Shown one piece after another: positions 1,165-21,319 of a DNA stretch of 22,154 nt. The position numbers and the translations under genes are program-made. Position 1 is the first letter of the stretch, and the number at the start of each line of letters is the position of its first letter. The notes beneath the pieces were generated by a model. It was not told the origin of the DNA. It was given only the letters and a program-made list of their open reading frames with translations, and searched no databases. This stretch comes from a virus (Duplodnaviria; Heunggongvirae; Uroviricota; Caudoviricetes), in the IMG/VR virus record IMGVR_UViG_2540341091_000004; one strand, 5' to 3'.

Positions 1165-1391
1165 TTTCTTTCCTCTGTTATGCCATCACCCGCGCTCACC
1201 TGGACAGTATGCAGCGGAGACTGAAGCGCCGCAATGCAAGCTTGCCGTGTTGTGAGGTAAGGAGATTTTGGCTTGGTTGGATCTTTACGTGTTGCCTGTA
1301 GGCGGCCTGTTCGTATCCAGTTGGTGGCGGTTGGTCTGGATATCTTAAGAAAATGACAGGCCTCATCGAGTGTGAGGCTGTATGGCTCCAT
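1020..1391 (-). CDS. xis: Excisionase / AlpA-like helix-turn-helix protein
   Basis: Start [31 protein letters not shown] resembles AlpA/Xis HTH. Its ATG (1391-1389) overlaps the upstream stop by 1 nt (TAATG). The frame stays open to 1020, overlapping int by about 145 nt, so the true 3' end is uncertain. Confidence 0.6.
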
Positions 1392-2585: not shown

Positions 2586-2712
2586 TTTGTTCTCCACGTA
2601 TATGCGCTGCACCGCGCTGAATTCTGGTAAAAAGAATCCCTCACCATCCTGCGATTATTGAGTAAATTACGTTTCCATAAATGCCCCCGCAGGGGCATTT
2701 GCAGTAATGAAA

Positions 2713-3537: not shown

Positions 3538-3601
3538 AATAAGTCCTCACTATATAAAGATATTCAGTGATGAGATAAATAATCAGTTTATTAGAACGAT
3601 A

Positions 3602-3964
3602 TTAACGACCTGCTGCGCGGAGTTTTCCGTCAGGTTCACCGGCAAGAGTCAGTAATTGTCCCTGGTCTTCCTGCAGAATAGTCAGGCGACCACCGCGATT
3701 GACATACATCGGCGTTTCGGTGGTGTCTTCTTCGGAAATTTTCCCGCGGTTAGTTGGGCGAACATATGAGAGTTTGTGTTTGATTTTCACACGGTTCTCA
3801 TCAAACGGTTCGATTTCCAGATTGAGTGAGACCTTCCCTTTGGTTTTCGTGTTCATCACACCGGAAGCGACCTCACTGAGAACTGCGCCGATTTTGGTTT
3901 CAAATACGCCGCCGTCCAGCTCCCCGATAAATGCCTGCACATCAGTACTGCGTTCGCTAGCCAT
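3602..3964 (-). CDS. Hypothetical phage protein (120 aa; YfdP-like by size and synteny)
   Basis: True start is ATG 3964 with a GAGGAG RBS 7 nt upstream. The ORF-track start at 4087 is the lambda A start codon fused to 41 junk codons. Confidence 0.5.
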   Translation of the reverse strand: MASERSTDVQAFIGELDGGVFETKIGAVLSEVASGVMNTKTKGKVSLNLEIEPFDENRVKIKHKLSYVRPTNRGKISEEDTTETPMYVNRGGRLTILQEDQGQLLTLAGEPDGKLRAAGR

Positions 3965-4060
3965 TTTGCTGCTCCTCATCATATCGACCCTGCAAGGTCG
4001 GTTGGTTTCTCCACAAAACAGAGAAGAACACCTGCGGTGGCAGCCGCCCGGATGGATTGG

Positions 4061-4087
4061 GTTAACCTGACTGTTCGATATATTCAC
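4061..4087 (-). pseudogene. Terminase large subunit (lambda A) 5' remnant - start codon plus first 9 codons only
   Basis: Translation MNISNSQVN matches the lambda gpA N-terminus; homology to lambda stops immediately after GGTTAAC at about 4061. Confidence 0.7.
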
Positions 4088-4607
4088 TCAGCAACCCCGG
4101 TATCAGTTCATCCAGCGCGGCTGCTTTGTTCATGGCTTTGATGATATCCCGTTTCAGGAAATCAACATGTCGGTTTTCCAGTTCCGGAAAACGCCGCTGC
4201 ACCGACAGGGGGATCCCGTCGAGAATACTGGCAATTTCACCTGCGATCCGCGACAGCACGAAAGTACAGAATGCGGTTTCCACCACTTCAGCGGAGTCTC
4301 TGGCATTTTTCAGCTCCTGTGCGTCGGCCTGCGCACGCGTAAGTCGATGGCGTTCGTACTCAATAGTCCCTGGCTGGAGATCTGTCTCGCTGGCCTGCCG
4401 CAGTTCTTCAACTTCCCGGCGCAGCTTTTCGTTCTCAATTTCAGCATCCCTTTCGGCATACCATTTTATGACGGCGGCAGAGTCATAAAGCACCTCATTA
4501 CCCTTGCCACCGCCTCGCAGAACGGGCATTCCCTGTTCCTGCCAGTTCTGAATGGTACGGATACTCGCACCGAAAATGTCAGCCAGCTGCTTTTTGTTGA
4601 CTTCCAT
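4062..4607 (-). CDS. nu1: Terminase small subunit Nu1 (lambda-type TerS)
   Basis: 181-aa protein MEVNKKQLADIFGASIRTIQNWQEQGMPVLRGGGKGNEVLYDSAAVIKWYAERD... is essentially identical to lambda Nu1 as I recall it; complete ORF. Confidence 0.9.
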   Translation of the reverse strand: MEVNKKQLADIFGASIRTIQNWQEQGMPVLRGGGKGNEVLYDSAAVIKWYAERDAEIENEKLRREVEELRQASETDLQPGTIEYERHRLTRAQADAQELKNARDSAEVVETAFCTFVLSRIAGEIASILDGIPLSVQRRFPELENRHVDFLKRDIIKAMNKAAALDELIPGLLSEYIEQSG

Positions 4608-4830
4608 TGTTCATTCCACGGACAAAAACAGAGAAAGGAAACGACAGAGGCCAAAAAGCTCGCTTTCAGCACCTGTCGTTTCCTTTCTTTTCAGAGGGTA
4701 TTTTAAATAAAAACATTAAGTTATGACGAAGAAGAACGGAAACGCCTTAAACCGGAAAATTTTCATAAATAGCGAAAACCCGCGAGGTCGCCGCCCCGTA
4801 GCCTGTTGGATCGCCGGAAAGGACCCGAAA
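4608..4830 (-). other. cos site (cosB - cosN - cosQ); 12-nt cohesive-end sequence at 4785-4796
   Basis: Reverse complement of 4785-4796 is GGGCGGCGACCT. Minus-strand sequence from there to the Nu1 start matches the lambda left end, and 4797-4830 matches the lambda right end (...CGGCGATCCAACAGGCTACG). Confidence 0.85.
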
Positions 4831-4945
4831 AACGAGAATAATTATCACTTACAGCAAGAATCGAATCTGATCTATTATGGTGCTTGCTATTATGTGCCGG
4901 CACAAGTGCGTCGTTTACCGTCATTTCACACAGAGGCATCATCAA

Positions 4946-5197
4946 ATGAAAATCAGAAATATTCTCGCTATCTCCCTTGCAACATCATCCTTCAGTTGCC
5001 TGGCATTTAAATCCTCGCCCAATGTGCTACCAGGACCAACGAATCAACTAACTGCGGTAGAAAGTAAAATTATCGGACATTTTTATGCCCCACACAGTGC
5101 ATTACCCGGAACAACCATCACAGGGACATGTGACGCCTCCCCCGTCCCGGGATGCACCTGTCCGTTTTGTACTATGCTGCGTAGCCAAAACCGATAA
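4946..5197 (+). CDS. Small secreted protein (83 aa) with N-terminal signal peptide and Cys-containing C-terminus
   Basis: ATG 4946 preceded by AGAGG; MKIRNILAISLATSSFSCLA looks like a Sec signal peptide; mature part contains TGTCDASPVPGCTCPFC. No family recognised. Confidence 0.4.
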   Translation: MKIRNILAISLATSSFSCLAFKSSPNVLPGPTNQLTAVESKIIGHFYAPHSALPGTTITGTCDASPVPGCTCPFCTMLRSQNR

Positions 5198-5258
5198 CAT
5201 CCGCATTTACCTGGTATTCCATGATGAGTTCACGCAGCGACTGATAGAGGAAGGAAAG

Positions 5259-5438
5259 ATGGTTAGCAAAAGCAAGGCGCATTGCCGCCGCATGCTGCAG
5301 GCATTGCAACAGACGAGAGCAGGTATTTTTGACCAGTTGGAAAACTGCCAGCATACTTTGCCCGAGTATATCGCCATCTCATCGGAAACCAGTGCAACTC
5401 TTATTCATCGGGTTCCACTAGAGAAAAAGAAGAAATGA
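5259..5438 (+). CDS. Small hypothetical protein (59 aa)
   Basis: ATG 5259 with strong RBS AGGAAGGAAAG immediately upstream; followed by a hairpin at 5445-5469. No homology recognised. Confidence 0.35.
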   Translation: MVSKSKAHCRRMLQALQQTRAGIFDQLENCQHTLPEYIAISSETSATLIHRVPLEKKKK

Positions 5439-5444
5439 ACAGTG

Positions 5445-5470
5445 AGGCGTTGTGTGGCATACAACGCCTT
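5445..5470 (+). terminator. Stem-loop downstream of the 4946-5438 cassette (possible terminator)
   Basis: Perfect 9-bp stem AGGCGTTGT/ACAACGCCT with 7-nt loop; only a weak T tract follows. Confidence 0.3.
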
Positions 5471-5560
5471 CTTCCATCATTCCTCGTCAGCCATGACAAA
5501 AATATAACCGCTGGCTCTTTCATTTTTCTCCTGCTTCCAGCCCCTCTCTACCTGGAAGCA

Positions 5561-5887
5561 TCAGGGACGTGACGGCGTAAAGATAAATTGTCTCTTCACT
5601 CCCTGACAGGGACGATTCTTTTCAAATCGCCATTTCGCCATGGCCTTCACCACTTCATCACGAAACAAATTATGAGGCTCTGAGCGGAGAAAAACGATCC
5701 GTGTCACAGTCCCATCAGCACCAATATCGAACTTAACCTCAACCAGCCCCTTGATATAATTTGCTGCAGCATATTCCGGATATCGTGGATACACCGTCAC
5801 TAATTGCCGGGGCTCATCAGCTTTTTGCTGCGAGCATCCCACTGCTAGGACAGATAACAGAAAAAGTAGTAAAAGGCGTCTTTTCAT
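5561..5887 (-). CDS. Lipoprotein with TonB C-terminal-like domain (108 aa)
   Basis: MKRRLLLLFLLSVLAVGC is a lipobox signal. PRYPEYAAANYIKGLVEVKFDIGADGTVTRIVFLRSEPHNLFRDEVVKAMAKWRFE aligns by eye to E. coli TonB C-terminal domain (P.YP..A.A..IEG.V.VKFDV..DG.V....L.A.P.N.FE.EV.NAM.RWR.EP). AGGA RBS before ATG 5887. Confidence 0.6.
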   Translation of the reverse strand: MKRRLLLLFLLSVLAVGCSQQKADEPRQLVTVYPRYPEYAAANYIKGLVEVKFDIGADGTVTRIVFLRSEPHNLFRDEVVKAMAKWRFEKNRPCQGVKRQFIFTPSRP

Positions 5888-6367
5888 TTTTATTCCTACG
5901 GGTCTTATTCTGACAATATATCCTGTGTTCCAGACTGCCACATCACCACATCCTGTGCCATTATCTGACTCACATTACATACATCGCATCGGGATACAGT
6001 AGTAGCACTTTCTGTAATACAGCTTCCGGTTTCTTCCACCATCGCACCGGGATAAATCCGCGAATCATTAACGCGGTAAAAACCCGGTGTGCATCGTTTT
6101 TAATTATTCCCGCACACTCACGCAGAAGGAATTCCCCGTCGGGCTACGGTCATGGTTAATGCGGGAATACGGCGACGATACAGCGCAGCTAAAAGGGTAA
6201 TGGACGGATAGACCGGTTTATTTCATTCTACAGGATTCTGAGTGTCCCCAACTCCCTCCAATCGTCTGAGCTCACCTGTGTAGTTTTAATTTTCATCAAT
6301 CCATTTAACTATCGTTTAATTGTTGTCACATAGGATTCTGCCGTTTTTAACAATGCAGGATAATAAG

Positions 6368-6661
6368 ATGAAAAAAATGTTGTTTTCTGCCGCTCTGGCA
6401 ATGCTTATTACAGGATGTGCTCAACAGACGTTTACTGTTGGAAACAAACCGACAGCAGTAACACCAAAGGAAACCATCACCCATCATTTCTTCGTTTCGG
6501 GAATTGGGCAGAAGAAAACTGTCGATGCAGCAAAAATTTGTGGTGGTGCAGAAAATGTGGTTAAAACAGAAACCCAGCAAACATTCGTAAATGGATTGCT
6601 CGGTTTCATCACTTTTGGCATTTATACTCCGCTGGAAGCGCGGGTGTATTGCTCAAAATAA
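6368..6661 (+). CDS. bor: Bor lipoprotein (serum-resistance, Iss family)
   Basis: 97-aa protein MKKMLFSAALAMLITGCAQQTFTV...EARVYCSK, near-identical to lambda Bor as recalled; AGGA RBS. Confidence 0.9.
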   Translation: MKKMLFSAALAMLITGCAQQTFTVGNKPTAVTPKETITHHFFVSGIGQKKTVDAAKICGGAENVVKTETQQTFVNGLLGFITFGIYTPLEARVYCSK

Positions 6662-6692
6662 TTGCATGAGTTGCCCATCGATATGAGCAACT

Positions 6693-7154
6693 CTATCTGC
6701 ACTGCTCATTAATATACTTCTGGGTTCCTTCCAGTTGTTTTTGCATAGTGATCAGCCTCTCTCTGAGGGTGAAATAATCCCGTTCAGCGGTGTCTGCCAG
6801 TCGGGGGGAGGCTGCATTATCCACGCCGGAGGCGGTGGTGGCTTCACGCACTGACTGACAGACTGCTTTGATGTGCAACCGACGACGACCAGCGGCAACA
6901 TCATCACGCAGAGCATCATTTTCAGCTTTCGCATCAGCTAACTCCTTCGTGTATTTTGCATCGAGCGCAGCAACATCACGCTGACGCATCTGCATGTCAG
7001 TAATTGCCGCGTTCGCCAGCTTCAGTTCTCTGGCATTTTTGTCGCGCAGGGCTTTGTAGGCGATTGCGTTATCACGGTAATGATTAACAGCCCATGACAG
7101 GCAGACGATGATGCAGATAACCAGAGCATAAATAATCGCGGCGACTCTGCTCAC
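6693..7154 (-). CDS. Rz: Rz i-spanin (inner-membrane spanin)
   Basis: 153 aa, matches lambda Rz almost throughout (…[26 protein letters not shown]…QKYINEQCR). Starts at GTG 7154, overlapping the endolysin stop. Confidence 0.9.
6752..6934 (-). CDS. Rz1: Rz1 o-spanin (outer-membrane lipoprotein) embedded in Rz in the +1 frame
   Basis: 60-aa [60 protein letters not shown], lambda Rz1-like proline-rich lipoprotein. Confidence 0.85.
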
Positions 7155-7684
7155 TGATCTATCCCCCAACAGGCTAATGCGCTTTCCTGGTCACGACGAA
7201 TAACCTGTCCATAGCAGTTATTTGAACGTATGCGGCAATCGCGCCCACCATCTTTTATCCACCAGCGAATCGCCTCGCATGCACCTTTACGATCACCGGC
7301 ATTCAGCCGCTTATAAAACGTCGACGGGAAACACTTACCGGGGCCAATGTTATAGGGACAAAATGACGCGATACCCGCTTTCTGTGGTTCGGTCAGTGGC
7401 ACTTTAATATTGCGCTCCACCCATGCCAGCGCCTTATCCCGTTCAATGGCGTTAACCTGGTCGCATTTTTCCTTCGACAGTTTCATACCGGGAACAACGG
7501 GTTTTCCATCCACCACCGTGGCACCCCGACAGATGGTCCAGATGCCGGAACCATCGCGGTATGCCGTTGTGTGGTTACCTTCTTTTTCATCCAGAAACTG
7601 GTCGAGAATATCAGGCGCAGGCGCACCGACGGCAATCAGTGCCAGAACGGCAGCCGACAGGCCGTATCTGATTTTTGCGTTCAT
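7151..7684 (-). CDS. SAR endolysin (GH24 lysozyme, phage-21 type)
   Basis: T4-lysozyme-type catalytic triad spacing in [23 protein letters not shown] (E-9-D-6-T); N-terminal Gly/Ala-rich weakly hydrophobic segment [18 protein letters not shown] typical of a signal-anchor-release domain. Confidence 0.85.
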
Positions 7685-7789
7685 GGATATTTATCAGGAT
7701 TTATCGGTTTCTGAACCCTGGATATGTTTATCTGTCCCGGCCTGTTGAATCAGGCAAGGAATAGTTAAATACAATAGAGAGGATTGTTT

Positions 7790-8062
7790 ATGGACAATAG
7801 CACCATTTCTCTACAGGAGTTGCTCGACTGCATTTCCAGGCTTCGGGATGATGTAAATGCCCTTACTGTCGCATTTTCATATCTGGCATTCTCAATTCCC
7901 AAGGAACAAATGCAACCAACACTGGCATCGCTCCAGCTTGAATCAATCAATCCCAAATGGTCCCAGCAACAACAAAATTCTTTCAAGTGGCTGGCGGTAT
8001 TACTGGAGGAAAAATATGCTGGTGAAATTACCATTTCGGCGGAGTCTTCAGTGAACCAGTAA
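7790..8062 (+). CDS. Hypothetical 90-aa acidic protein, antisense within the lysis cassette
   Basis: ATG 7790 with GAGAGGA RBS 7 nt upstream; occupies the 343-bp gap between endolysin and the upstream gene and overlaps the 3' end of 8028-8372 convergently. No family recognised. Confidence 0.3.
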   Translation: MDNSTISLQELLDCISRLRDDVNALTVAFSYLAFSIPKEQMQPTLASLQLESINPKWSQQQQNSFKWLAVLLEEKYAGEITISAESSVNQ

Positions 8063-8372
8063 TTCTTCCCGGCAGTTTTCCTTTGTAGGTTATCCACACA
8101 CTCTGCGCCTCTAAAATTATGGGGCGCTTTTCCGGCGACTGCTCATCCCCTCCACATAACCCGGCAGCAACATCCAGGAAGACCTGTCTGATGCTCCTTC
8201 TGGCTGCTGCCTCATAAAACTCCAGCGCGGCACCTTCAACACGGTCCAGCGAGATGTCCAGGTCAAAAATTTCACCGTCAAAGCGTTCTTTGTCCTGTAA
8301 TGCTAAAGTTACCGTAACTTTATTCTCAAAATTGCGGATCCCTTTCACAATCATTTCATAGTTTTGGACCAT
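8028..8372 (-). CDS. Hypothetical protein between holin and endolysin (possibly DUF1327 / YdfR-like)
   Basis: 114-aa ORF, ATG 8372 with GGAG RBS, directly after the holin stop. Position matches ydfR in the Qin lysis cassette; family assignment is from memory only. Confidence 0.45.
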   Translation of the reverse strand: MVQNYEMIVKGIRNFENKVTVTLALQDKERFDGEIFDLDISLDRVEGAALEFYEAAARRSIRQVFLDVAAGLCGGDEQSPEKRPIILEAQSVWITYKGKLPGRITGSLKTPPKW

Positions 8373-8376
8373 TATA

Positions 8377-8592
8377 TTACTCTCCTCTCGCAGCCTTTCT
8401 TCTGTCTTCTCTGATTTTGAAGTACAGATTCGTCAGATAAGTCAGAAAGCCCAGAACCAGACTTCCCAGTACACCAATCGCAGCCCACTGAGACGGACTA
8501 ACCTGATCAAGCCATTGTAAAAACCAGTAGCCAGCACTGCCTGCGGAGGTGCCGTAGGCAATGCCTGTTGATATTTTTTCCATCTGATACAT
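8377..8592 (-). CDS. Pinholin (phage-21 S-type class II holin) with dual-start motif
   Basis: [71 protein letters not shown] matches S21 pinholin; Met1/Met4 give the antiholin/holin dual start. The ORF-track start at 8664 is an upstream extension. Confidence 0.85.
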
Positions 8593-8621
8593 ATCCCGCC
8601 CCAACAGACCTGTGCTACCGG

Positions 8622-8657
8622 AAAGAAAAAAGGCCATCAGCAAAACTCTGATGGCCT
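8622..8657 (-). terminator. Intrinsic terminator just upstream of the holin (tR'-like position)
   Basis: 10-bp stem AGGCCATCAG/CTGATGGCCT (8631-8640/8648-8657) with 7-nt loop, followed on the minus strand by TTTTTCTTTC. Confidence 0.45.
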
Positions 8658-8701
8658 GAATCACCTTTACCAGTCATGTATGAAAAAATACGCACAACCA
8701 A

Positions 8702-8731
8702 TTGACAATAATTATCATTTTCATTAAAAAT
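8702..8731 (+). promoter_or_regulatory. Candidate sigma70 promoter (TTGACA, 17 bp spacer, TAAAAA)
   Basis: Consensus -35 TTGACA at 8702-8707, A/T-rich -10-like hexamer at 8725-8730. The -10 is imperfect and the -35 is near-palindromic, so strand is uncertain. Confidence 0.25.
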
Positions 8732-8764
8732 ACCGCGTAACATTCTTATTTCATGAAGAACCAT

Positions 8765-8831
8765 ACCCGCCAGCAACCTGAGTAGCAAAAGCTGTTCATC
8801 CCCCATATTTTTGCTGGCGGGTTCTTTTTTC
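8765..8831 (+). terminator. Plus-strand intrinsic terminator (12-bp stem, long loop, T-run)
   Basis: ACCCGCCAGCAA (8765-8776) pairs perfectly with TTGCTGGCGGGT (8811-8822), followed by TCTTTTTTC. Confidence 0.45.
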
Positions 8832-9057
8832 TACTGCCCTCCTCCCCAGGAAAAGCATTTCATTCTTTTCTCATTAATCGTTACTGGAGAGAAGGCGGGA
8901 AAAAGCCAGCTCTTTGGCCCTAAATAACAGCATGGCTTCAGTCCATACAGAATCTGATTTTCCAGCTCACATAATAACCAGATGATGCAGTTGCAAAATC
9001 TGGCAACATCGGATTATTATGCGCCTGTGAAAATTTCTTCACGTTTTATTCCTTGCC

Positions 9058-9085
9058 GCCCGTGCCTCCCAGCGCGGGCTTTTTT
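9058..9085 (+). terminator. Plus-strand intrinsic terminator
   Basis: 8-bp stem GCCCGTGC/GCGCGGGC (one G-U pair), 6-nt loop, then TTTTTT. A second perfect hairpin TACCCCTC-cgga-GAGGGGTA follows at 9097-9116. Confidence 0.45.
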
Positions 9086-9404
9086 ATCCAAAAAATACCC
9101 CTCCGGAGAGGGGTATCATACAAGGGGATGACCATGATGCATGGTGCCGGGTGCCTCCCGGTGAGTCCGGCATCAGCATACGAACCCGCGATTATCCCAG
9201 AACTGACTGCTGATTCGCCCCGCCGCTTAGGGGGATTCACCATGCGTTTTTTTATTTACAAACTCTTCGCCAGACAAACAACCATTAACTGGCTGAATTG
9301 TGAGGTATTTCAATTTTTAGAAAACTGACCAACCTCCGCTTATACGCCGGGCATGGAGCGGATACAAAAAAGCCCCGCAAAAGCAGATCAGAAGGATTCG
9401 TTGT

Positions 9405-9443
9405 AAAAAAAAAGCTGTCAGATTATCGCGCTAATCTGACAGC
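9405..9443 (-). terminator. Strong minus-strand intrinsic terminator downstream of the methyltransferase gene
   Basis: Perfect 12-bp stem GCTGTCAGATTA/TAATCTGACAGC with 6-nt loop; on the minus strand it is followed by nine T. Confidence 0.6.
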
Positions 9444-9685
9444 TACAGCAGGTATCCAAAAACATGGGTGGAAACAATAAGTGAGTTAAGAAGACACGGT
9501 GTCGGATTTTTACCGATGAGCCGTTGGCGTGGTCAACCGTGACTCGCTTGTATCAACGATGAATTAATGAAGCCAATCCTTTGCAGGCTATGTACAACCC
9601 ACCACATCAGCCCTGCTGCATTGCAGGATACACTGTATCTGTAATCATTATACGGCACAGACATCCCACCAATAATTGAATTAAT

Positions 9686-10777
9686 TCACAAAATTGTATT
9701 TGCTGATAACATACTGATTTCCTGGATGGTCTGATTAAACCGCTCTGTCTCAAGCTCAACACCTAACGCCCGACGCCCCAGCGCCATTGCTGCTTTTATT
9801 GTGGAACCGGATCCCATAAAGAAATCAGCAACCAGATCGCCGGGTCGACTACTGGCATTGATTATTTGCCTGAGCATATCCGCCGGTTTCTCACACGGAT
9901 GTTTACCCGGGTAGAACTGAACGGGTTTATGCATCCAGACATCGGTATAAGGCACGGAGACTGATACGGAGAAATAGCGCCGGAGAGATTTAAACTCATC
10001 CAGCAATTCAGAATATTTGCGATTCAGTGAATCATAAGATGCCACCAACTGGTGGTGTGGTTGTTCCAGTTGTTGTTCCTGAAACTTCTCTGCCGCTATA
10101 CGGGAAAACAGTGCCTGTAACTTCCGGTAGTCAGCCTCATTCGGCAACTGCCACTGACTGGCACCAAACCAGTGGGAAACCATATTTTTCTTACCTGTGG
10201 CTTCGGCAATTTGTTTTGCCGTTATACCCAGTTCGGCACGAGCATCCCTGAAATACGATATCAGCGGTGCCATTATGTGCTGTTTGAGTTCCCTTTCTTT
10301 TGCCGCATAGCCGTCACTTTTGCCGCGATATGGCCCCTGGTAATGTTCAGCAAACAGAACGCGCTCTGTGGCAGGAAAATATGCGCGCAGACTTTCTTTA
10401 TTACACCCATTCCAACGTCCGGACGGCTTCGCCCAGATGATATGGTTAAGCACGTTGAAACGTTCACGCATCATGATCTCAATATCAGATGCCAGGCGAT
10501 GCCCACAGAACAGGTAAAGGCTTCCGGCTGGTTTCAGTACCCGCCAGAACTGGGCCAGACAGTGGTCCAGCCACTTCAGGTAATCTTCGTCCCCTTTCCA
10601 CTGATTGTCCCAGCCGTTGGGCTTCACTTTGAAGTACGGCGGATCGGTAACAATCAGATCAATGGAGTTATCAGGCAGGGACTGAATAAAATGCAGGCAA
10701 TCAGCGTTGATTAAATCAACACTGTTTATTTTTACAGTATTTTCATGGATCAGTAAGCGTAACTCTGGTAGGCTCAC
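9686..10777 (-). CDS. Orphan DNA methyltransferase, beta class (N6-adenine or N4-cytosine)
   Basis: Motif IV DPPY (IVTDPPYFKV) near the N-terminus and motif I FxGxG (FFMGSGST) near the C-terminus; architecture like YhdJ-type enzymes. GTG start at 10777 with weak RBS. No adjacent restriction endonuclease recognised. Confidence 0.85.
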   Translation of the reverse strand: MSLPELRLLIHENTVKINSVDLINADCLHFIQSLPDNSIDLIVTDPPYFKVKPNGWDNQWKGDEDYLKWLDHCLAQFWRVLKPAGSLYLFCGHRLASDIEIMMRERFNVLNHIIWAKPSGRWNGCNKESLRAYFPATERVLFAEHYQGPYRGKSDGYAAKERELKQHIMAPLISYFRDARAELGITAKQIAEATGKKNMVSHWFGASQWQLPNEADYRKLQALFSRIAAEKFQEQQLEQPHHQLVASYDSLNRKYSELLDEFKSLRRYFSVSVSVPYTDVWMHKPVQFYPGKHPCEKPADMLRQIINASSRPGDLVADFFMGSGSTIKAAMALGRRALGVELETERFNQTIQEISMLSANTIL

Positions 10778-10896
10778 TCTGCTTTTGCGCTAAAGCAGTG
10801 GGCCGTGGTTCGCTTGTGACAAGTAAGCATGAGCGAATGGCTGGCAGGTGCTACCAACACCCACCAGCCGCCCATTTTCACAGCAGGAAACCGCCA

Positions 10897-11100
10897 TTAC
10901 TGGCAGCGTCTGAATTTATTCCCGTACCCGCCGTTATCCTTCGCCAGACCCGCCAGAACTAACTGAGTCAGTATTAACTGGCACCGGGCTTCGCTTACTC
11001 CGGTAGTTCTCGTCATCATGCGTGGCGTTACCCACTTGTCAGCAGGTAAGAAATGAAGGACTGCGGCGGCGGTTTCTGTCATATCTTGCTGTTTTAGCAT
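10897..11100 (-). CDS. Small basic protein (67-75 aa), possible winged-helix DNA-binding protein
   Basis: ORF 10897-11124; start more likely ATG 11100 (AAGGG upstream) than 11124. TPRMMTRTTGVSEARCQLILTQLVLAGL resembles an HTH; no family recognised. Confidence 0.35.
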   Translation of the reverse strand: MLKQQDMTETAAAVLHFLPADKWVTPRMMTRTTGVSEARCQLILTQLVLAGLAKDNGGYGNKFRRCQ

Positions 11101-11419
11101 GTCTTTTTCCCTTCTGGTTAACATGACATACCAATAACTCTTGTCTAAAAAGCCAGCAAGATAAAAAGTCAGTATTCACGACCACCAGCGTGTTTACTGT
11201 GCTGCACCAAGTTTACAGGTACAAAAAAACCGCTCAGCGGCGGGTTTAAGTTGTGTGGCGAAGTAACCACTCTTAACACAGTAATCTAGAAAATGCGGAC
11301 CGCGTTAGTGATTTTTATCTGTTTTTCCATTATTTTTTTGCCACACAGCTTAAAACGAAAAATAAAGCAGGCGTTGCCAAACCTCACGGTGACAGTTGGC
11401 TTAGAATGAGGACATATTT

Positions 11420-12439
11420 TTGGATAAGTTTGATGAGATTCATGTAGACATTGAATCTGAGCAGCAAGCCTTCGATTTGCTTGAAAGCTATCTTGATGGT
11501 TATGGTTTACCTGACAGTTTAAGTTTCAACGGATGGCCAAACCTTACCATCAGATTAACCGGTGAAAAATTCAACAGATCGCTAACACCTTCAGTTATGA
11601 AGGGATTTGTTGAAATGCAAGCTCAAATCAACAAATCATATGCCCTTGCCAAGTACGGTGTCCCTGACGTCCGCAAACTGACCAAAGAAGAACTTGATGC
11701 CCTAGAAATAGAAGTTACGGTAGAACAGGGTTCTTCAATAGTAGAAATCAACATTGATGGCTTTTTAACCAAACTCACACAGGAACTTGTTGGTAAAATG
11801 AACGCAACTGAGATCATGTTTACTGTTCTCGGCGCAGCAGTCATCTGGGGCGGAGTAACAGTATTTAAACGGTTCTTGGACAACCGTAAAGATATTCGCC
11901 TTGCAGAAATTGCTAAGGATGGAGAGAAAGAACATCTCCGGACTATGCAGATCATGAGCGAGCAAGAAACTAAACGCCTGCGGGTTATTTCAGAAATGAT
12001 TGCGGAAAAACCACTTCTCGATAACATGGACCGTATGTCGTATGACGCTAAAACCCAAATGGTCAAATCCTTTGTGCGTTCAGATAACGCTCAAATTGAT
12101 GGCGTTACTATTGATTCTGAAATGGCGAAAGAGTTGGTTACGAATGCTCGTAGACGTTCATCAGAAATGAGGATTGATGGTATTTACCGAATTGAAGAAG
12201 TCAATAATACTGACCCAGAGAGTTTCAAAGTTAAGGTCCGACGCGTAGATACCGACCAACGTCTAACCTGCGTAGTTCAGGATGTTTTCCTTGATGAATC
12301 CGGAAACAAAGAAGCATTGCAGCGAGCTGAGTGGGAAAGAAAGCCTGTACATTTGAGCATTAACGCAAAACACGTCGATGGTGACATTAAGTCAGCAGTA
12401 ATTCTCTATGTTCGAGATGTGGAACAAAAGCCCGAGTAA
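11420..12439 (+). CDS. Membrane-anchored protein of unknown function (339 aa, single predicted TM helix); moron at the Q-lysis locus
   Basis: Only long plus-strand ORF in a minus-strand block; TTG start at 11420 with GAGGA 7 nt upstream; lower G+C than flanks by eye; hydrophobic segment IMFTVLGAAVIWGGVTVF at about aa 132-150; no recognisable catalytic motif. Confidence 0.6.
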   Translation: MDKFDEIHVDIESEQQAFDLLESYLDGYGLPDSLSFNGWPNLTIRLTGEKFNRSLTPSVMKGFVEMQAQINKSYALAKYGVPDVRKLTKEELDALEIEVTVEQGSSIVEINIDGFLTKLTQELVGKMNATEIMFTVLGAAVIWGGVTVFKRFLDNRKDIRLAEIAKDGEKEHLRTMQIMSEQETKRLRVISEMIAEKPLLDNMDRMSYDAKTQMVKSFVRSDNAQIDGVTIDSEMAKELVTNARRRSSEMRIDGIYRIEEVNNTDPESFKVKVRRVDTDQRLTCVVQDVFLDESGNKEALQRAEWERKPVHLSINAKHVDGDIKSAVILYVRDVEQKPE

Positions 12440-12448
12440 TCGGGCTTC
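12429..12448. terminator. Hairpin between convergent genes (339-aa ORF and Q)
   Basis: 8-bp stem AAGCCCGA/TCGGGCTT with GTAA loop, spanning the stop of the plus-strand ORF; A/T-rich flanks on both sides. Confidence 0.35.
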
Positions 12449-12453
12449 AATAA

Positions 12454-12831
12454 TCAATCTTTAATTTCGGGGTCCATCTCTAGACTAATTTCCAGCATCG
12501 ATAGGCAGCCATCAATAAACCCCTCAGCCATCTGTATCTCAATGCGTATTAGTTTCTCATCCTTTTTACGAGCCTTGGCGAGCTTTCTTTTAGAGATACC
12601 GTATAGGTAATGGGCAACAAGAAGCGAATGTTCGTCCGGCCTTTTTTGCCTTAGACGAGCAAGACAACCTTCAATAATTAATGCATCACTATCTGAACAT
12701 GCCTGACGTGTTTTGCTTGTATAGGGAAGAAGCCCTTTAAACCCAGCAGCTATAGGAGAATAGTCTACTCCTGAACTATCACTCGCCGCCCATGCTCCCC
12801 AACGATCCAGAACCATTTGAATATCACGCAT
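12454..12831 (-). CDS. Late-gene antiterminator Q (QuuD / phage-82-type Q family)
   Basis: MRDIQMVLDRWGAWAASDSSGVDYSPIAAGFKGLLP... closely follows the DLP12 QuuD pattern as I recall it (MRDIQMVLERWGAWAA...). Start taken at ATG 12831. Confidence 0.8.
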   Translation of the reverse strand: MRDIQMVLDRWGAWAASDSSGVDYSPIAAGFKGLLPYTSKTRQACSDSDALIIEGCLARLRQKRPDEHSLLVAHYLYGISKRKLAKARKKDEKLIRIEIQMAEGFIDGCLSMLEISLEMDPEIKD

Positions 12832-12848
12832 CAACTTTCTCCACAAAA

Positions 12849-13844
12849 TCAGGCCAGCACGCCAATTGCCAGCGCACGATCGATAAAACGAAATATCAGC
12901 TCCAGCTGGGAGCCATACTTCTCTTCAAATGCCACGGTATCCGCATGCAGCTCGTCGTGATGCTTTCTGCACAAAGGCAACACAAAGAGGTCATGCGCTT
13001 TTGTACCCATTCCCCCCTGACCGTGGCCTATCAGGTGGTGGGGATCATCAGCAGGCTTTCCACAACATGCACACGGCTGTGTCTTAACCCAGCGCGTGTA
13101 CTTTTCATTAACCCAGCGGCGACGTTTTGGGCGTAACATAAAAGACTCCGGCGACTCCGGATCCACTTTCAGCGCCAGCACCTTTTTCGCCTTATCCTGG
13201 ATGATGCTGGTGGCAGGAACCGAAGGCACAAGGTCACTTTCCCGGGTGACAGACGGCACAACAGGCTTCGGTAATCTCAGTGCCTTACGGGCTGCACTTT
13301 CCGGTAAGGCATCCGCCAGGTCATTACGAATCAGCCACCAGCACAGTTCCGGCATTGTCACAACGTGACTGTCATCAAAACCGAGATCCCGACGCACAAC
13401 AGACAACACCCAGCGGGCACAGTTATCCGTTGCCATTGATTCCAGCCGTTCCGTGAACTGATCGCGCAGCTGGTTATCGCAGTGCCAGCACAGACGGATT
13501 GCGCCCGGCGCGTGTCGCATTGTTGTCATGTTCTCGCTGTGCCAGTCGGAATGAGGCCACTGGCAGCCTTTTTCACGAAGTAACCAGCTTTCAAGACATT
13601 CCACGCCACCAGCACGACGGATCACTGCCTCATTGCGGAACACGGCCCGAACGACAGGATCATCCGCCAGCGGTTGTGATGCCGCCGGAACGGCACCACT
13701 GGCAAAAGATGAATAACGTTCCGGCTCAGGCTCCAGCAGGACACGCCCCTGCATAAACAGGGGCATCAGCTCTGAACCAGGTCTGAACAATACGATCCCC
13801 ATACGCGGGGCAATTTCAGGGGTCAGTAGTGCTCTCACAGTCAC
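12849..13844 (-). CDS. DUF968-like protein with HNH-like Cys/His motif (YdfU-like)
   Basis: C-terminal CACCGKPADDPHHLIGHGQGGMGTKAHDLFVLPLCRKHHDELH; GTG start at 13844 one nt after the upstream stop. Confidence 0.65.
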   Translation of the reverse strand: MTVRALLTPEIAPRMGIVLFRPGSELMPLFMQGRVLLEPEPERYSSFASGAVPAASQPLADDPVVRAVFRNEAVIRRAGGVECLESWLLREKGCQWPHSDWHSENMTTMRHAPGAIRLCWHCDNQLRDQFTERLESMATDNCARWVLSVVRRDLGFDDSHVVTMPELCWWLIRNDLADALPESAARKALRLPKPVVPSVTRESDLVPSVPATSIIQDKAKKVLALKVDPESPESFMLRPKRRRWVNEKYTRWVKTQPCACCGKPADDPHHLIGHGQGGMGTKAHDLFVLPLCRKHHDELHADTVAFEEKYGSQLELIFRFIDRALAIGVLA

Positions 13845-13845
13845 C

Positions 13846-14643
13846 TCAATGAACGGTATCGAGCAGCTTTAACAGCTCAGGGAATCGGGATTCGAAGAAA
13901 TGCGGCTGCGTCTCGCGCGGATTTGCAGGACTGGTGATGTTCTTGCCGAACATGCAGCCTTTCGCTGTCAGCGACCAGAATTTTTTGATGTTGTTAATCG
14001 CGGTACGGCTGTATCGTTCGCGCTGCTCGACGATCCCCAGCTTCACCATCTGGTGATATGCCTGATTAGCTGTCAGGCGGATACCATACTGCTTCAGCAG
14101 TGCACTCAGTGACAGTGTCGGGCGACTTGAGCCATCGTGTGCATCAGCAGGAGCATCAATGGCATAGCGCGGTGCCAGATTCGGTAAGCCAACAGCCTCC
14201 TGGAGTTTCTGACAGGCACCAAGCACTGAAGAGTTAGACAGGTTTAACTCCCGGCGCATAAAGTCCAGCAGGATCACGCCAGCCTGCATCTTGTCAGCAG
14301 CCTGTCCGGATAATTTTTCCGGTGCGCTGGTTACCATATCGAAAGTACGGATCACCTTCAGATGGAATGACGGGCTGATCCACATTGCATAGGCATACAC
14401 CAGTTCTTTGCAGACATACGTCCCCTGGTTATTTCCGCCACGAATAACGTTAACTGGCTCTATATTGACCGAGTTGCAAATCTGCAACTCGCTTATTAAA
14501 CGTTCAGTTTGCTCATTGCGGAGCCAGAATGCAGGCTTATGCTTATCCAGAGAACCGGCAGCCCTGTGCAGATCGTTCAGGCTGTAACGACCATAAGCAT
14601 CACGACGAACTTCAATACCATCAATGACCATCAGATTATTCAT
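13846..14643 (-). CDS. KilA-N domain protein (phage antirepressor-like)
   Basis: N-terminal MNNLMVIDGIEVRRDAYGRYSLNDLHRAAG...KPAFWLRNEQTERLISEL looks like KilA-N; strong AGGAG RBS before ATG 14643. Confidence 0.7.
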   Translation of the reverse strand: MNNLMVIDGIEVRRDAYGRYSLNDLHRAAGSLDKHKPAFWLRNEQTERLISELQICNSVNIEPVNVIRGGNNQGTYVCKELVYAYAMWISPSFHLKVIRTFDMVTSAPEKLSGQAADKMQAGVILLDFMRRELNLSNSSVLGACQKLQEAVGLPNLAPRYAIDAPADAHDGSSRPTLSLSALLKQYGIRLTANQAYHQMVKLGIVEQRERYSRTAINNIKKFWSLTAKGCMFGKNITSPANPRETQPHFFESRFPELLKLLDTVH

Positions 14644-14662
14644 ACTTCGTTTCTCCTCTTAA

Positions 14663-15052
14663 TCAGGCGGCTGCACCCGCCGGTTTCTCGTACTTACTGA
14701 TAGTGATCTCGACCTTCCCTTCCGGGATAACCGGTCCCCACTCCACCAGCATTCTTTTCACCTGACTGTCGTCTTCCCACACACCCGCATGGGTCAGGGC
14801 GTCAAACAGCGCCTTGTTATAGTTGTCCAGATCGCGGATCCGGTTATCCGGAGGAAACAACACGATCTCCACTGAAGCAGGTGCCGACGTTGGTTTCGGC
14901 AGACGACGTAACTGCTCAACTATTGCTGCGCACGCCGCGCTCTGGAATTTGCGCCCCGCTGCGCTTATCAGACTCTTACCAGCAAACGCCCCTTTGTTGG
15001 GGTGTCGCCTGTACGTGTTCACGCTGGGAGGGAAAGGCAAGATCAGCTTCAT
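14663..15052 (-). CDS. rusA: RusA-family Holliday-junction resolvase
   Basis: LPFPPSVNTYRR...RDLDNYNKALFDALTHAGVWEDDSQV matches the RusA signature (LPxPPSxNxYxR ... RDLDNxxKAxxDALTxAGxWxDDxQV). Confidence 0.8.
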   Translation of the reverse strand: MKLILPFPPSVNTYRRHPNKGAFAGKSLISAAGRKFQSAACAAIVEQLRRLPKPTSAPASVEIVLFPPDNRIRDLDNYNKALFDALTHAGVWEDDSQVKRMLVEWGPVIPEGKVEITISKYEKPAGAAA

Positions 15053-15375
15053 ACTTTCAGGCCCCTCTCATGTAACCAGTGGGCTGCACGCAGCCTGGCG
15101 TTTTCCTCACCGGCAAGCAGTGCGCGGATAATCCCGACCGCCTCGCTGTCGTCGTCCTTCACCGCGGTATGAAGAGTTATCCCCCGGGCCACGCCACGCT
15201 TTATCGTGATGACGCTTTTTTTCTCCAGTGCGCGAAGATGCTCCACCGCTGCATTCACCGAACGGTATCCCAGCATGGTTGCCACCTCCTGATTGGTTGG
15301 CGGAAAGCCACGTTCTTGCTGGTAAGAAATCAGCATATCCAGCACCTGCTGCTGGCATTGAGTTAACGTCGTCAT
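15049..15375 (-). CDS. LexA DNA-binding-domain-only protein (108 aa; no S24 peptidase domain)
   Basis: LTQCQQQVLDMLISYQQERGFPPTNQEVATMLGYRSVNAAVEHLRALEKKSVITIKRGVARGITL aligns by eye with the LexA N-terminus ([65 protein letters not shown]); the protein ends about 40 aa later. Confidence 0.7.
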   Translation of the reverse strand: MTTLTQCQQQVLDMLISYQQERGFPPTNQEVATMLGYRSVNAAVEHLRALEKKSVITIKRGVARGITLHTAVKDDDSEAVGIIRALLAGEENARLRAAHWLHERGLKV

Positions 15376-16025
15376 GCCGCCATCTCCCTGACCAGTTTTT
15401 CCGCCTGCTGGCGAACCTGCGCCAGAAAGGCCTCACCACATGCCTCAAGTTCATCGCGCCCGATGTAGCTGATTGCCGGTCCCTTCCAGGTCTTGTCGAA
15501 AACAGCAATAGCACCAGCGAAGAAAGCGCCTGTCGGCACCTGCTTCTCGTCCTTCGGGATAAACCAGGCTGGCAGTTCAAAACCAATACGCCCGCGAATA
15601 AAAGCAATATGGTCTGCATCTTCCGGCCACCACACTTCGCTGGTGGCAGCTTTGATCAGGAAAACATAGCGCCCGCCTTTATCACGCATGGCACTGGCAT
15701 GCTTCATGATGTAACGCATGCCGGTGATGTATTGCCCCTCATGCTGACTGGCGCGGCTGTACGGGGGATTACCAAAGGCAGCACCTTTAAGCTCCGCAAG
15801 ACGTTCTGACCAGTCATGCGCCAGCGCGTTGTCTTCCGCAGTGTAATACGCGGCGCATTTGGCGTTATCACCATCAGTAAACAGATCCAGAACAAACGGG
15901 CCAAACAGGGTGTTAATTCCCCAGAAAATGTTGTCCGGCGTGCGCCACTGATCGCCCACTTCCTTCAGTTCATGGGCTGGTTTGTTCCGCAGCTCCACCA
16001 GCGCCTGGCAATATTTATTACTCAT
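15372..16025 (-). CDS. Phage Dam-like N6-adenine DNA methyltransferase
   Basis: Catalytic NPPY motif (FGNPPYSRA); start ATG 16025 overlaps the upstream stop (TAATG). Position matches the yfdM methylase in CPS-53. Confidence 0.8.
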   Translation of the reverse strand: MSNKYCQALVELRNKPAHELKEVGDQWRTPDNIFWGINTLFGPFVLDLFTDGDNAKCAAYYTAEDNALAHDWSERLAELKGAAFGNPPYSRASQHEGQYITGMRYIMKHASAMRDKGGRYVFLIKAATSEVWWPEDADHIAFIRGRIGFELPAWFIPKDEKQVPTGAFFAGAIAVFDKTWKGPAISYIGRDELEACGEAFLAQVRQQAEKLVREMAA

Positions 16026-16513
16026 TAAGCCCCCACGTAATTCCCTGACAGATACCACTCTTCACCCGATGCAGCGCGCTTGCTGCTTTTCCGTAAACAC
16101 CGCTCACGACGCGCAAGAAAATTGTTTCGCTCTTGCTGGGAGTGGCTTTCACGGAATGCCGCCATCCACACCGTTGCAGCACGACGGTATAAGCCCCTGG
16201 ACTCCAGTTCTTCCGCCTGGCGGGTCAGGCACAAAATCACCCGGGGATCGTTAGTGCCGACATAGAAATTGCGCACAGGTCTGGATTCACGAACTGGTTG
16301 CGGTTCCGGCTCCTGCGGTATCTCAGTCAGCCGCGGGAAATGTCTGCGTGTATCCCCTTCACAACGGTGAGCCACACGCCCACTCTGACGTAACTTGCTT
16401 GCTGACTGCAGAACGCGCTGTCGTGAGTAACCTGCAAAAGCATCCGCAATGTCTCCGGAAGTACACCCCGGATGGGCTTCAATGAATTTCTGAACGTCAT
16501 TCAAAAGACTCAT
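16025..16513 (-). CDS. PerC-like putative regulator (YfdN-like)
   Basis: LESRGLYRRAATVWMAAF resembles the PerC-family core; ORF-track length of 164 aa matches YfdN. From memory only. Confidence 0.4.
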   Translation of the reverse strand: MSLLNDVQKFIEAHPGCTSGDIADAFAGYSRQRVLQSASKLRQSGRVAHRCEGDTRRHFPRLTEIPQEPEPQPVRESRPVRNFYVGTNDPRVILCLTRQAEELESRGLYRRAATVWMAAFRESHSQQERNNFLARRERCLRKSSKRAASGEEWYLSGNYVGA

Positions 16514-16515
16514 GA

Positions 16516-17289
16516 TCACCCCCTGAATCCTGCCGGGATCTGGCTGTAGTCCACGTTGTCGTAACTGGCTTTGAAGTACGGGTCTTCGCGTTTTTCGGTG
16601 TACGTGCTGACGGACGGCGATAAGCGCAGGGAAAGCTCATCCCATTTTTCCCGCAGCTTCGACGGGCTGAGCACGTTACGGCACCAGAACGGATCGCGAC
16701 TGACGCGGCTGTACATCTCGCAGATTTGTTTATGAGTACGACCATCCTGCACACACATCAGGCGAATTTCGTTTGCCCAGGCTGTCCAGTTCGGTTCTTT
16801 GGGACGAACCACCTCGCCGTCACATTCGGCGGCATGCTCGTACAGGGCGATGATTTTTTTCCAGAGCCACTGTGCGCAGGTCAAATCATCCTGCGTCCCC
16901 CACTGGCGCTTTTTAGGGCTGAATACAACCGCATCAGGATGGCGAGTTAAAAAATCCTGTTCAGCCGTCTGCGTGTCCGGTTGCGAAGAGTCCGGACGAG
17001 AAGGTTTTTTATCTGACGGATCATGTTTTGATTTTACTGACGGATCCCCGCCAGATTCTGACGGGTGAAAACCCGCTTTTTTGCCAGATTTCGACGCATC
17101 AAATTTTGACGGGTCAGATTTTGATGCGTCAGATTTTGACGGGTCAGAATCTGACAGTTGAGAAAATGCCGCTGCCTGAAGCTTCGCAACGTTAAGCTGA
17201 TAAACATTCGACGCATTGCGGTTACCCTGGCGACGCGCCTTACGCGTTAACCAGCCTTCTGCTTCCAGCCGTGCGATACCCGCTGGCAT
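16516..17289 (-). CDS. Replication initiator (O-like), 5' end replaced at a rearrangement junction; possibly non-functional
   Basis: Contains an in-gene iteron array encoding SDSDPSKSDASKSDPSKFDASKSG and a conserved-looking C-terminal domain. The first codons (MPAGI) are read from lom-derived sequence, so the native N-terminus and promoter are gone. Confidence 0.5.
   Translation of the reverse strand: MPAGIARLEAEGWLTRKARRQGNRNASNVYQLNVAKLQAAAFSQLSDSDPSKSDASKSDPSKFDASKSGKKAGFHPSESGGDPSVKSKHDPSDKKPSRPDSSQPDTQTAEQDFLTRHPDAVVFSPKKRQWGTQDDLTCAQWLWKKIIALYEHAAECDGEVVRPKEPNWTAWANEIRLMCVQDGRTHKQICEMYSRVSRDPFWCRNVLSPSKLREKWDELSLRLSPSVSTYTEKREDPYFKASYDNVDYSQIPAGFRG
17012..17160. repeat. Iteron-like direct repeats (about 8 copies of tYTGACGGRTCA) - candidate replication origin
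   Basis: Copies at about 17012, 17037, 17057, 17089, 17105, 17120, 17135 and 17149; the last four are spaced about 15 bp apart; each is a short palindrome (TGAC...GTCA). Confidence 0.55.
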
Positions 17290-17625
17290 GAAGATTCCGT
17301 GCGTAACCGCTGGTTCAGCGTGATGGCGGGGCCGTCTGTGCGCGTGAATGAATGGTTCAGCGCGTATGCGATGGCGGGTGTGGCTTACAGCCGTATTTCG
17401 ACTTTCTCCGGGGATTATCTCCGCGTAACTGACAACAAGGGGAAAACGCACGACGTGCTGACCGGAAGTGATGACGGTCGCCGCAGCAACACGTCTCTGG
17501 CGTGGGGGGCTGGCGTGCAGTTTAACCCGACCGAATCCGTGGCCATTGATATTGCTTATGAAGGCTCCGGCAGTGGCGACTGGCGCACTGACGGTTTCAT
17601 CGTGGGTGTCGGTTATAAATTCTGA
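17275..17625 (+). pseudogene. lom: lom 3' fragment (Lom/Ail/OmpX outer-membrane protein, N-terminal ~95 aa missing)
   Basis: DTRWHEDSVRNRWFSVMAGPSVRVNEWF...DGFIVGVGYKF matches the C-terminal half of lambda Lom; homology begins abruptly at about 17275 with no signal peptide. Confidence 0.85.
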
Positions 17626-17651
17626 TTAGCCAGGTAACACAGTGTTATGAC

Positions 17652-17678
17652 AGCCCGCCGGTTCAGGCGGGCTTTTTT
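17652..17678 (+). terminator. Intrinsic terminator between lom and stf
   Basis: Perfect 8-bp stem AGCCCGCC/GGCGGGCT with GGTTCA loop, then TTTTTT. Confidence 0.6.
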
Positions 17679-17689
17679 GTGGGGTGAAT

Positions 17690-21292: not shown

Positions 21293-21319
21293 TATCCTTC
21301 AAGCTCTGAAGGAGGCTGT

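Follow-up and report, generated by a model that had tools for sequence, protein, structure and literature searches.

A reversed O-to-Nu1 block in a defective lambdoid prophage at argU in the avian pathogenic Escherichia coli O78 lineage

Schofield et al. are said to have described, in 1992, inversions in Escherichia coli at repeats of 12-23 bp. Inversions and deletions are both recognised features of grounded prophages (PMC6379469). The DLP12 prophage of E. coli K-12, which is riddled with deletions and immobile, occupies the argU site, and an argU-associated, bor-like prophage with a chromosomal iss allele was already listed in avian pathogenic E. coli (APEC) O78 strains; in strain O78-9, this chromosomal iss was no substitute for the plasmid iss in serum survival (PMC4313913). 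RNA-seq data have been produced for strain chi7122 (PMC8487346). Here, we describe the 22,154-bp stretch of the IMG/VR record IMGVR_UViG_2540341091_000004 (the whole stretch is called the window below), a lambdoid prophage of the PhiR29_1/mEp460/DLP12 type that is defective ("grounded") and located at argU in the APEC O78 (chi7122 / APEC O78) lineage. The block at 4061-17282, containing Nu1, cos, the lysis genes, iss, Q, the nin-like genes and a truncated O gene (O'), is truly reversed relative to both of its flanks. We consider it very likely that this order results from one inversion through short homology between O and lom, followed by deletions, in the recent decay of a single phage lineage.

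Orientation of the block against canonical relatives

The genes at 1-3964 and those from Nu1 to O' (4062-17277) are encoded on the minus strand, and lom' and stf on the plus strand. When compared by BLAST with the complete genome of strain MS20649, the window was split into three pieces, 1-4064 (+), 4061-17282 (-), and 17273-22154 (+), with identities of 99.86-99.98%. Strain E19057 (APEC, O78:H4) gave a three-piece split at identical break points, the block being 99.98% identical to the canonical prophage at the same locus, and the same break points and strand pattern were found against the intact inducible phage PhiR29_1, lambda, and the K-12 prophages DLP12 and CPS-53. An earlier note on this DNA had described this gene content and these strands, and had claimed that the replication-to-Nu1 block is inverted relative to the flanks; each of these comparisons, including those it had proposed with lambda, CPS-53, and DLP12, bears out the reversed middle piece, and its joints at about 4061 and about 17272 were placed correctly to within a few bases.

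Both E19057 and MS20649, whose genomes are complete, carry the same prophage at the argU-ompT locus in the canonical order, namely int, yfdT-P, a cI-like gene, a cro-like gene, ymfL, a DUF4222 gene, O, PerC to Q, the lysis genes, iss, Nu1, and A onwards. In the window, O' to Nu1 is codirectional with int and opposite to lom' and stf, a departure from the canonical lambdoid order that is derived. In parallel, the neighbourhoods of the gene encoding the TonB_C-domain protein were sampled in a public assembly collection, in which 51,003 blocks contain this protein. The lysis genes, Nu1, A, W, and the portal gene were codirectional in all 10 distinct places sampled, and the inverted-but-undeleted forms sought in this sample of 10 were not found among them.

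All inverted genomes differ from canonical genomes at two single-nucleotide polymorphisms (SNPs), 4826 and 15010 (in rusA), which are the sole substitutions in 13.2 kb. So few substitutions, together with the clade-specific distribution of these SNPs, point to an inversion that is recent and that probably arose only once. When the window is compared with its RefSeq relatives, all 10 differences are located in the flanks (1476, 1503, 3594, and 21266-21810) and none in the 13.2-kb block. Seven of the 10 cluster at the 3' end of stf, the tfa fragment, and pin, and those inside 6516-22154 are common to CP004009.1; the differences may be due to gene conversion from paralogous tfa or pin copies, or to errors in an older assembly.

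The location of the element was established from the genomes of GPEC1054, E3, ACN002, and MS20649, in which argU and an IntD-type integrase gene are found at one end and ompT-envY on the far side, as in the argU/DLP12-site family. In GPEC1054, the prophage and its neighbour argU (tRNA-Arg) are bordered by sfm-fimZ on one side and ompT-envY-nfrA on the other; argU is located 15 bp upstream of int in GPEC1054, E3, and MS20649, so that the attL side lies just beyond the edge of the window. The chromosomal flanks of the prophage are in the usual K-12 order, and the inversion is thus confined to the prophage interior. GPEC1054 is 99.96% identical to the window, the main difference being an IS2 insertion sequence (IS) at 1832-1837, and CP004009.1, described as APEC O78 in the literature and the probable origin of the window, is 100% identical to 6516-22154 with zero gaps.

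The two joints and the proposed history

Judged from the parental sequences, the right joint was formed illegitimately, at an inverted microhomology of 6 bp. The parental sites in O and lom have only GCGATA(G/C)CCG in common, with no similarity past 10 bp. The two halves of the joint are TATCGC in O (at about codon 60, inside the HTH_36 domain) and GCGATA in lom (at about codon 83 of the PhiR29_1 gene), a short inverted repeat being present at both parental break points with the crossover within it. Homology to intact O stops at 17278/17282, and O and lom are each truncated at the joint. The intact O homologue (313 aa) matches phrog_391, "replication initiation O-like" (E = 4e-135), and its HTH_36 domain spans residues 23-70. 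The iterons of the presumed origin are located about 120 bp from the inversion break point, and the origin appears to have been kept without a functional initiator.

A 400-bp probe of the right joint was found at full length in four of 5,426 complete E. coli genomes (E3, DSM 103263, GPEC1054, and GPEC484-624). An ATG at 17287-17289, antisense to lom and 5 nt past the joint, is in frame with the O fragment and opens a 257-aa open reading frame (ORF) at 16516-17289 on the minus strand (MPAGIA/RLEAEG...). A look-up of the exact joint-spanning protein in the public assembly collection gave 80 blocks, among them CP004009.1 (APEC O78) and HE962388.1 (chi7122); this ORF is annotated by gene callers in many assemblies and is a handy exact-match marker of the inversion. 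No record was returned by exact-protein look-up for a 311-aa joint-spanning ORF or for a 161-aa ORF over the left joint, and an exact 40-mer of the right joint gave no match in the JGI metagenome contigs or in the GTDB species representatives.

The left joint is of another kind, and its GTTA is common to the region upstream of yfdP and to the junction of Nu1 and A. A left-joint probe was found at full length in eight of the complete genomes (ACN001, ACN002, NC19, NC22, EM22-18-53, GZM7, XB2, and GPEC1054), and the recorded hosts of the strains carrying either joint are chicken, duck, and other poultry. GPEC1054 carries both joints, whereas E3 is inverted and lacks the left one. In E3, the right joint is identical, and the inverted Nu1' is still adjoined by 1,487 bp of inverted A'-W-B' that is 100% identical to E19057; this stretch runs directly into the final 266 bp of int across a microhomology of 5-8 bp, and a separate deletion with a 5-bp microhomology took out the Nu1/A boundary. 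The ancestral inverted segment must thus have reached at least into the portal gene B, and the joint at 4061 arose later, by a lineage-specific deletion. The ACN-type strains share the left joint and have lost a further 6.1 kb (12440-18534), and the right joint with it. A derivation of these strains from the E19057 type, whose stf deletion ends 3 bp away from theirs, was rejected, as ACN002 goes with the inverted group in both its left joint and the clade SNP at 4826. Microhomologies of 3-8 bp are present at all the other novel joints of this prophage family as well (A'/lom'' in MS20649; B'/U and V'/stf' in E19057), and the argU prophage locus is decaying by illegitimate recombination.

The left deletion has its end point in the stop codon of Nu1, so that both Nu1 and cosN are preserved without change. 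Retention of Nu1 and cos is also seen in DLP12, with its complete nohD and truncated A (aaaD), and in MS20649, with Nu1 and part of A. Independent IS2 insertions are present in related poultry strains, in GPEC1054 (locus L001, 13848-15076) and in envY of E19057 (locus L002, 3722-4950); that of GPEC1054 interrupts the DUF551/yfdS-like ORF, and its 6-bp overlap at 1832-1837 is a presumed target-site duplication.

These results suggest the following history. The first event would have been an illegitimate inversion mediated by the microhomology GCGATA/TATCGC, with its ends at about codon 60 of O and about codon 83 of lom; its one surviving joint is observed, and its extent is deduced. The simplest reconstruction takes the inversion all the way from O to lom, because what follows the joint on its right is the 3' part of lom in native orientation. 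Such an inversion would have flipped O, nin, Q, the lysis genes, cos, Nu1, A to J, and lom', about 29-32 kb in all (the O-to-lom span measures 29.2 kb on PhiR29_1, or about 32 kb when the larger moron content of this lineage is allowed for). Independent microhomology deletions, directly visible in the genomes described above, then trimmed the left side differently in different sub-lineages. The lineage of the window underwent one or more deletions that left the GTTA joint and that extended from a point 96 bp before yfdP to the first base past the Nu1 stop codon, with a loss of about 3.2 kb of early, immunity, and O N-terminal DNA together with the inverted lom'-J to A. Gone with this material are the early-left ORFs not listed here, cI, cro, the cII-like gene, the N-terminus of O, the reciprocal joint, and lom'-J to A. 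In E3, int' was joined to B' by another deletion, and the boundary of Nu1 and A was lost in a small one; the ACN-type lost 12440-18534.

The earlier note had proposed a deletion of the immunity region and of A through J plus an inversion between the two present joints. The inversion is real and these regions are indeed lost, the prophage having arisen by deletion from a lambdoid phage of canonical order, but E3 indicates that the inversion did not take place between both present joints: only the right one (O with lom) is an inversion joint, and that at 4061 is a later deletion. Inverted-repeat homology, which the note had suggested might be present at both joints, amounts to 6 bp at the right joint only, the 4 bp at the left joint being a direct-deletion microhomology.

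Several points weigh against this history. All the joint evidence comes from assembled sequences. The predicted reciprocal joint (O N-terminus joined to the reverse complement of the lom N-terminus, ...GTCAGAACGGCTATCGCTGTAATGAGTCAGC..., built from MS20649) had no full-length match in the 5,426 complete genomes, and the undeleted intermediate is thus undocumented; the first event may therefore have been non-reciprocal, with sequence lost at the same time (for example through a template switch during replication), and not a clean inversion to lom. The region in which the reciprocal joint would lie is deleted in all known carriers. Moreover, a metagenome scaffold (L019; ENA ERZ28597042) that contains the identical joint-spanning ORF and aligns to 6516-20340 has 88 positions unlike those of the window (86 mismatches, the others in gaps; 0.64%), spread in a patchy manner (10000-11500, 13000-16500, and 17000-18000), which could be due to gene conversion or recombination with other prophages after the inversion, or to a chimeric metagenome assembly. 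Lastly, the functional consequence is a prediction from gene order, by which the element should be unable to replicate, lyse the cell, package its DNA, or excise, and would be a passenger with iss/bor, two methyltransferases, and other morons.

Competing explanations and consequences for the element

In one alternative, a single inversion had the present joints (about 4061 and about 17272) as its ends, and the immunity region and A-J were deleted at the same ends, either beforehand or in one complex event. Such a model would account for the microhomology at both joints, for the lack of any trace of A-J in the window, and for the failure to find an undeleted intermediate, but not for the E3-type genomes, which have the right joint and the clade SNPs, no 4061 joint, and inverted A'-W-B' contiguous with Nu1; in addition, the left-joint-only state of the ACN-type is due to the later deletion of 12440-18534. 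We regard this model as improbable. A chimera, in which a 13-kb late fragment of a co-resident lambdoid prophage was inserted backwards into a CPS-53-like or mEp460-like backbone by two illegitimate crossovers, seems distinctly improbable. Lambdoid prophages are mosaic, an E. coli genome contains a median of eight places matching the window, and different parts of the window are matched by different phage records; nevertheless, block and flanks are found together, in canonical order and at the argU locus, with 99.9% identity in E19057 and MS20649, and the A'-W-B' kept in E3 fits an inversion in place and not the insertion of a trimmed fragment. The CPS-53-like backbone carrying lambda/21-like late modules that the earlier note had envisaged is not supported either, as CPS-53 homology covers flank (1329-3983, 96.5%) and block (15759-17224, 97.8%) alike, and the element, derived from one phage lineage, resides at the DLP12/argU site with IntD and not at the argW site of CPS-53.

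The ALTERNATIVES tested comprised a Pin-type invertase, Int at secondary att sites, IS elements, homologous recombination between prophages, and the CPS-53 chimera. A site-specific recombinase, either the Pin-like invertase or IntD acting on secondary (quasi) sites, could be invoked because a serine invertase gene is located 4.3 kb from the right joint and because inversions at secondary sites are mentioned for invertases and Int (PMC6379469). However, no gix/hix/pix-like core (AAACCNNGGTTT, at most two mismatches) was found at or near the joints, a pattern scan of the window for such 26-bp sites with an AAACC-NN-GGTTT core giving seven loose matches when 11.6 were expected by chance; the O and lom sites have nothing beyond GCGATA(G/C)CCG in common, and the joints are not at attL/attR and lie away from the prophage ends, which speaks against Int at secondary att sites. 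The probability of a recombinase origin is very small in our estimation. A programmed switch was rejected from the comparison of genomes, since the canonical and inverted forms differ by large deletions and by the truncation of O and lom, and orientation follows the clade SNPs. Inversion by homologous recombination was likewise rejected: no long inverted or direct repeats were found at either joint, the longest inverted repeat in the window being 28 nt (71% complementary), and the flanks are in normal order. IS-mediated inversion or deletion was set aside, with no IS at 4061 or 17282 and the IS2 of GPEC1054 at a distance.

An assembly artefact, that is, a contig mis-oriented between repeats, is hardly credible. 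CP004009.1 is a 2013-era assembly and prophages are rich in repeats, but the right joint is present in four and the left joint in eight complete genomes from various laboratories and countries, with both together in GPEC1054, the joint-spanning ORF recurs in the 80 assembly blocks, and the repeats at the edges of the block, of just 6 bp and 4 bp, are too short to mislead an assembler. There is just as little chance that the order is native to an undescribed family of viable phages, for which the recurrence of the arrangement in several genomes is the sole support. The immunity region, the terminase large subunit, and the head and tail genes are absent, not one of 50,697 phage records extends over a joint, their matches stopping at 4061 and 17282, and canonical order is found in the closest intact phages. 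With O and lom cut short at the joint and the joints recurring in independent assemblies, the arrangement is real and derived, and neither an artefact nor a viable architecture.

The window lacks cI, cro, pL, pR, the terminase large subunit gene, and all virion genes. With O presumably deprived of its DNA-binding N-terminus and cut off from pR, and Q and the lysis cassette apparently left without an upstream early promoter, no replication, lysis, or packaging is expected. An O-to-lom inversion might itself have been the grounding step: by cutting O at about codon 60, it would have uncoupled replication, Q, and lysis from pR at once, after which loss of the repressor and immunity could have been tolerated by the host. 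We think this unlikely; if true, it would be a case of domestication by inversion rather than by deletion alone, with an island carrying iss and a methylase fixed in the APEC O78 lineage.

The rearrangement is a lineage-specific instance of well-known prophage decay and involves no new mechanism or type of element. A limited literature search retrieved no earlier description of this inversion. Its value is that the odd gene order of a reference APEC genome is explained and shown to be real. The locus also offers a step-resolved example of decay, with one inversion and at least four independent microhomology deletions among near-identical strains, throughout which iss/bor, Nu1-cos, and the lysis cassette were retained. 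The sequences of the yfdP/Nu1 and O'/lom' joints are lineage-specific, and the APEC O78 / chi7122 clade and its sub-lineages could be recognised from them by polymerase chain reaction or by k-mers.

Gene content and comparison with known systems

The features of the window are listed in Table 1. Gene identities were checked independently of the RefSeq annotation (Pfam, PHROG, the cosN match, and the iterons), and they include the modules expected of a lambdoid prophage, namely Q, a holin-endolysin-Rz cassette, Nu1 with a lambda-type cos, an O-type initiator with ori iterons, and lom/stf (Pfam and PHROG).

Table 1. Features of the 22,154-bp window. Strands are given as + or -.
Feature	Position	Strand or type	Evidence and remarks
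Tyrosine integrase IntD	1-1164	-	Pfam Phage_integrase, E = 5.5e-47; 99.4% to K-12 DLP12 intD over 1-1259
Early-left arm, native orientation	1391-3964	-	yfdT, DUF551 ORF, yfdR (5'-deoxynucleotidase-like), yfdQ, yfdP; RefSeq annotation of GPEC1054
Left joint	4061-4064	Deletion joint	GTTA, present both 96 bp upstream of yfdP and where the Nu1 stop codon meets the start of A; three-way alignment
Nu1 (terminase small subunit), complete, inverted	4062-4607	-	Pfam Phage_Nu1, E = 3.9e-101, full length
cosN, 12-nt cohesive-end sequence GGGCGGCGACCT	4785-4796	-	Exact match, chance expectation 0.05; corresponds to lambda position 1
TonB_C-domain ORF	5561-5887	-	Pfam; PHROGs label "Rz-like spanin"
iss/bor (Lambda_Bor)	6368-6661	+	Pfam; strand opposite to the lysis genes, as in lambda
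Rz	6693-7154	-	Pfam
Lysozyme	7151-7684	-	Pfam
DUF1327/YdfR	8028-8372	-	Pfam
P21-type holin	8377-8592	-	Pfam
N6_N4 DNA methyltransferase	9686-10750	-	Pfam N6_N4_Mtase, E = 5e-42; PADLOC MTase_II
339-aa ORF	11420-12439	+	About 42% GC; PHROG phrog_6191 (unknown function), E = 1.6e-152
Q and nin-like region, inverted	12454-16519	-	Q, DUF968, KilA-N, RusA, LexA DNA-binding-domain protein, Dam, PerC/yfdN; Pfam
O' (truncated replication initiator)	16516-17282	-	About the first 60 codons missing, with most of the helix-turn-helix
ori iterons, 4 x 15 bp, family D2	17085-17159	Inside O'	CAGATTTTGACGGGT-like; presumed ori
Right joint	17273-17282	Inversion joint	GCGATA (17273-17278) 6/6; 9/10 over 17273-17282; reverse complement of O with lom, three-way alignment
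lom', native orientation	17275-17625	+	C-terminal 117 codons; Pfam Ail_Lom, E = 1.5e-64, profile 92-199 of 199
Side tail fibre Stf, native orientation	17684-21292	+	Pfam phage_tail_N, E = 1.3e-71, and Peptidase_S74 chaperone
tfa fragment	21341-21466	+	126 bp
Pin-like serine invertase	21564-22154	-	196 aa; Pfam Resolvase and HTH_7

The early-left arm, in which yfdQ corresponds to Pfam DUF2303 (E = 8e-92), is collinear (+) with MS20649, PhiR29_1, and the int of DLP12. On the minus strand, the Nu1 region is 99% identical to lambda 1-737, and the lysis region (5561-8592) is inverted, with minus-strand matches to lambda and DLP12 and an agreeing RefSeq annotation. The iss/bor allele and the TonB_C ORF are kept in every deletion derivative examined. 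The 339-aa ORF and the N6_N4 methyltransferase gene form a moron region (9686-12439) downstream of Q. This ORF lies on the strand opposite to its neighbours, directly after Q, where morons, stx, or ompD are classically located; neither Pfam nor PADLOC gave a match, and it is conserved in all relatives, including the further-deleted ACN002.

The Stf protein (WP_000268784.1) is identical in the annotation of MS20649, E3, and GPEC1054. Homology of stf to thousands of E. coli genes and to PhiR29_1 stops at 18528-18531, where the conserved N-terminal region of Stf ends and within an array of repeats with a 42-bp period (18065-18622). No more than 3 bp from this boundary are the ends of two independent deletions, V'/stf at 18532 (E19057, locus L002, 14572-14575) and 339-aa-ORF/stf at 18535 (ACN002, locus L004, 15438-15440). 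As a weaker possibility, the end of the Stf N-terminal domain (18531/18532), a mosaic boundary in thousands of genomes, could be a sequence-directed hot spot of recombination. The adjacent Pin-like invertase gene has only the tfa fragment beside it and no recognisable crossover sites in the window, and is orphan-like, as in Rac and Qin.

Among described elements, DLP12 resembles the window by its argU site, its intD, ompT downstream, and a tfa fragment, and also by its Q, P21-type holin, Rz, bor, and a complete Nu1 homologue (nohD) next to a truncated or absent A. It differs in its early, replication, and moron content and, above all, in orientation, since Q, the lysis genes, and nohD of DLP12 are codirectional with the tail-fibre remnants, whereas the block of the window is reversed. 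PhiR29_1 (PV340556) is 95-98% identical over int-yfdP, O-Q, Nu1, and lom to the stf N-terminus, and mEp460 shows 98% identity in lom-stf and in a part of the early arm, but both phages are complete, canonical, and inducible, while the window is without the immunity region and A-J and has its O-Nu1 block reversed. CPS-53 (KpLE1) shares yfdP-T (96.5%) and yfdM-N-O (97.8%), and it too is without an immunity region and the O N-terminus; it is, however, located at argW with IntS, and its two arms are divergent and contiguous, whereas those of the window are 11.8 kb apart and codirectional.

With regard to mechanism, the invertible segments of Mu (G), P1 (C), and e14 (P), served by Gin, Cin, and Pin, recall the Pin-like invertase gene adjoining stf and tfa in the window, but these are reversible switches of 2-4 kb between 26-bp sites, when the window shows a one-off rearrangement of at least 13 kb with truncated genes and no such sites. 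Another parallel is found in short-repeat inversions and prophage grounding, with which this locus shares a short inverted microhomology, the lack of a recombinase site, and an inactivated prophage that then underwent deletions, and from which it differs in that the repeat is just 6 bp (9/10) and the reciprocal product is not preserved.

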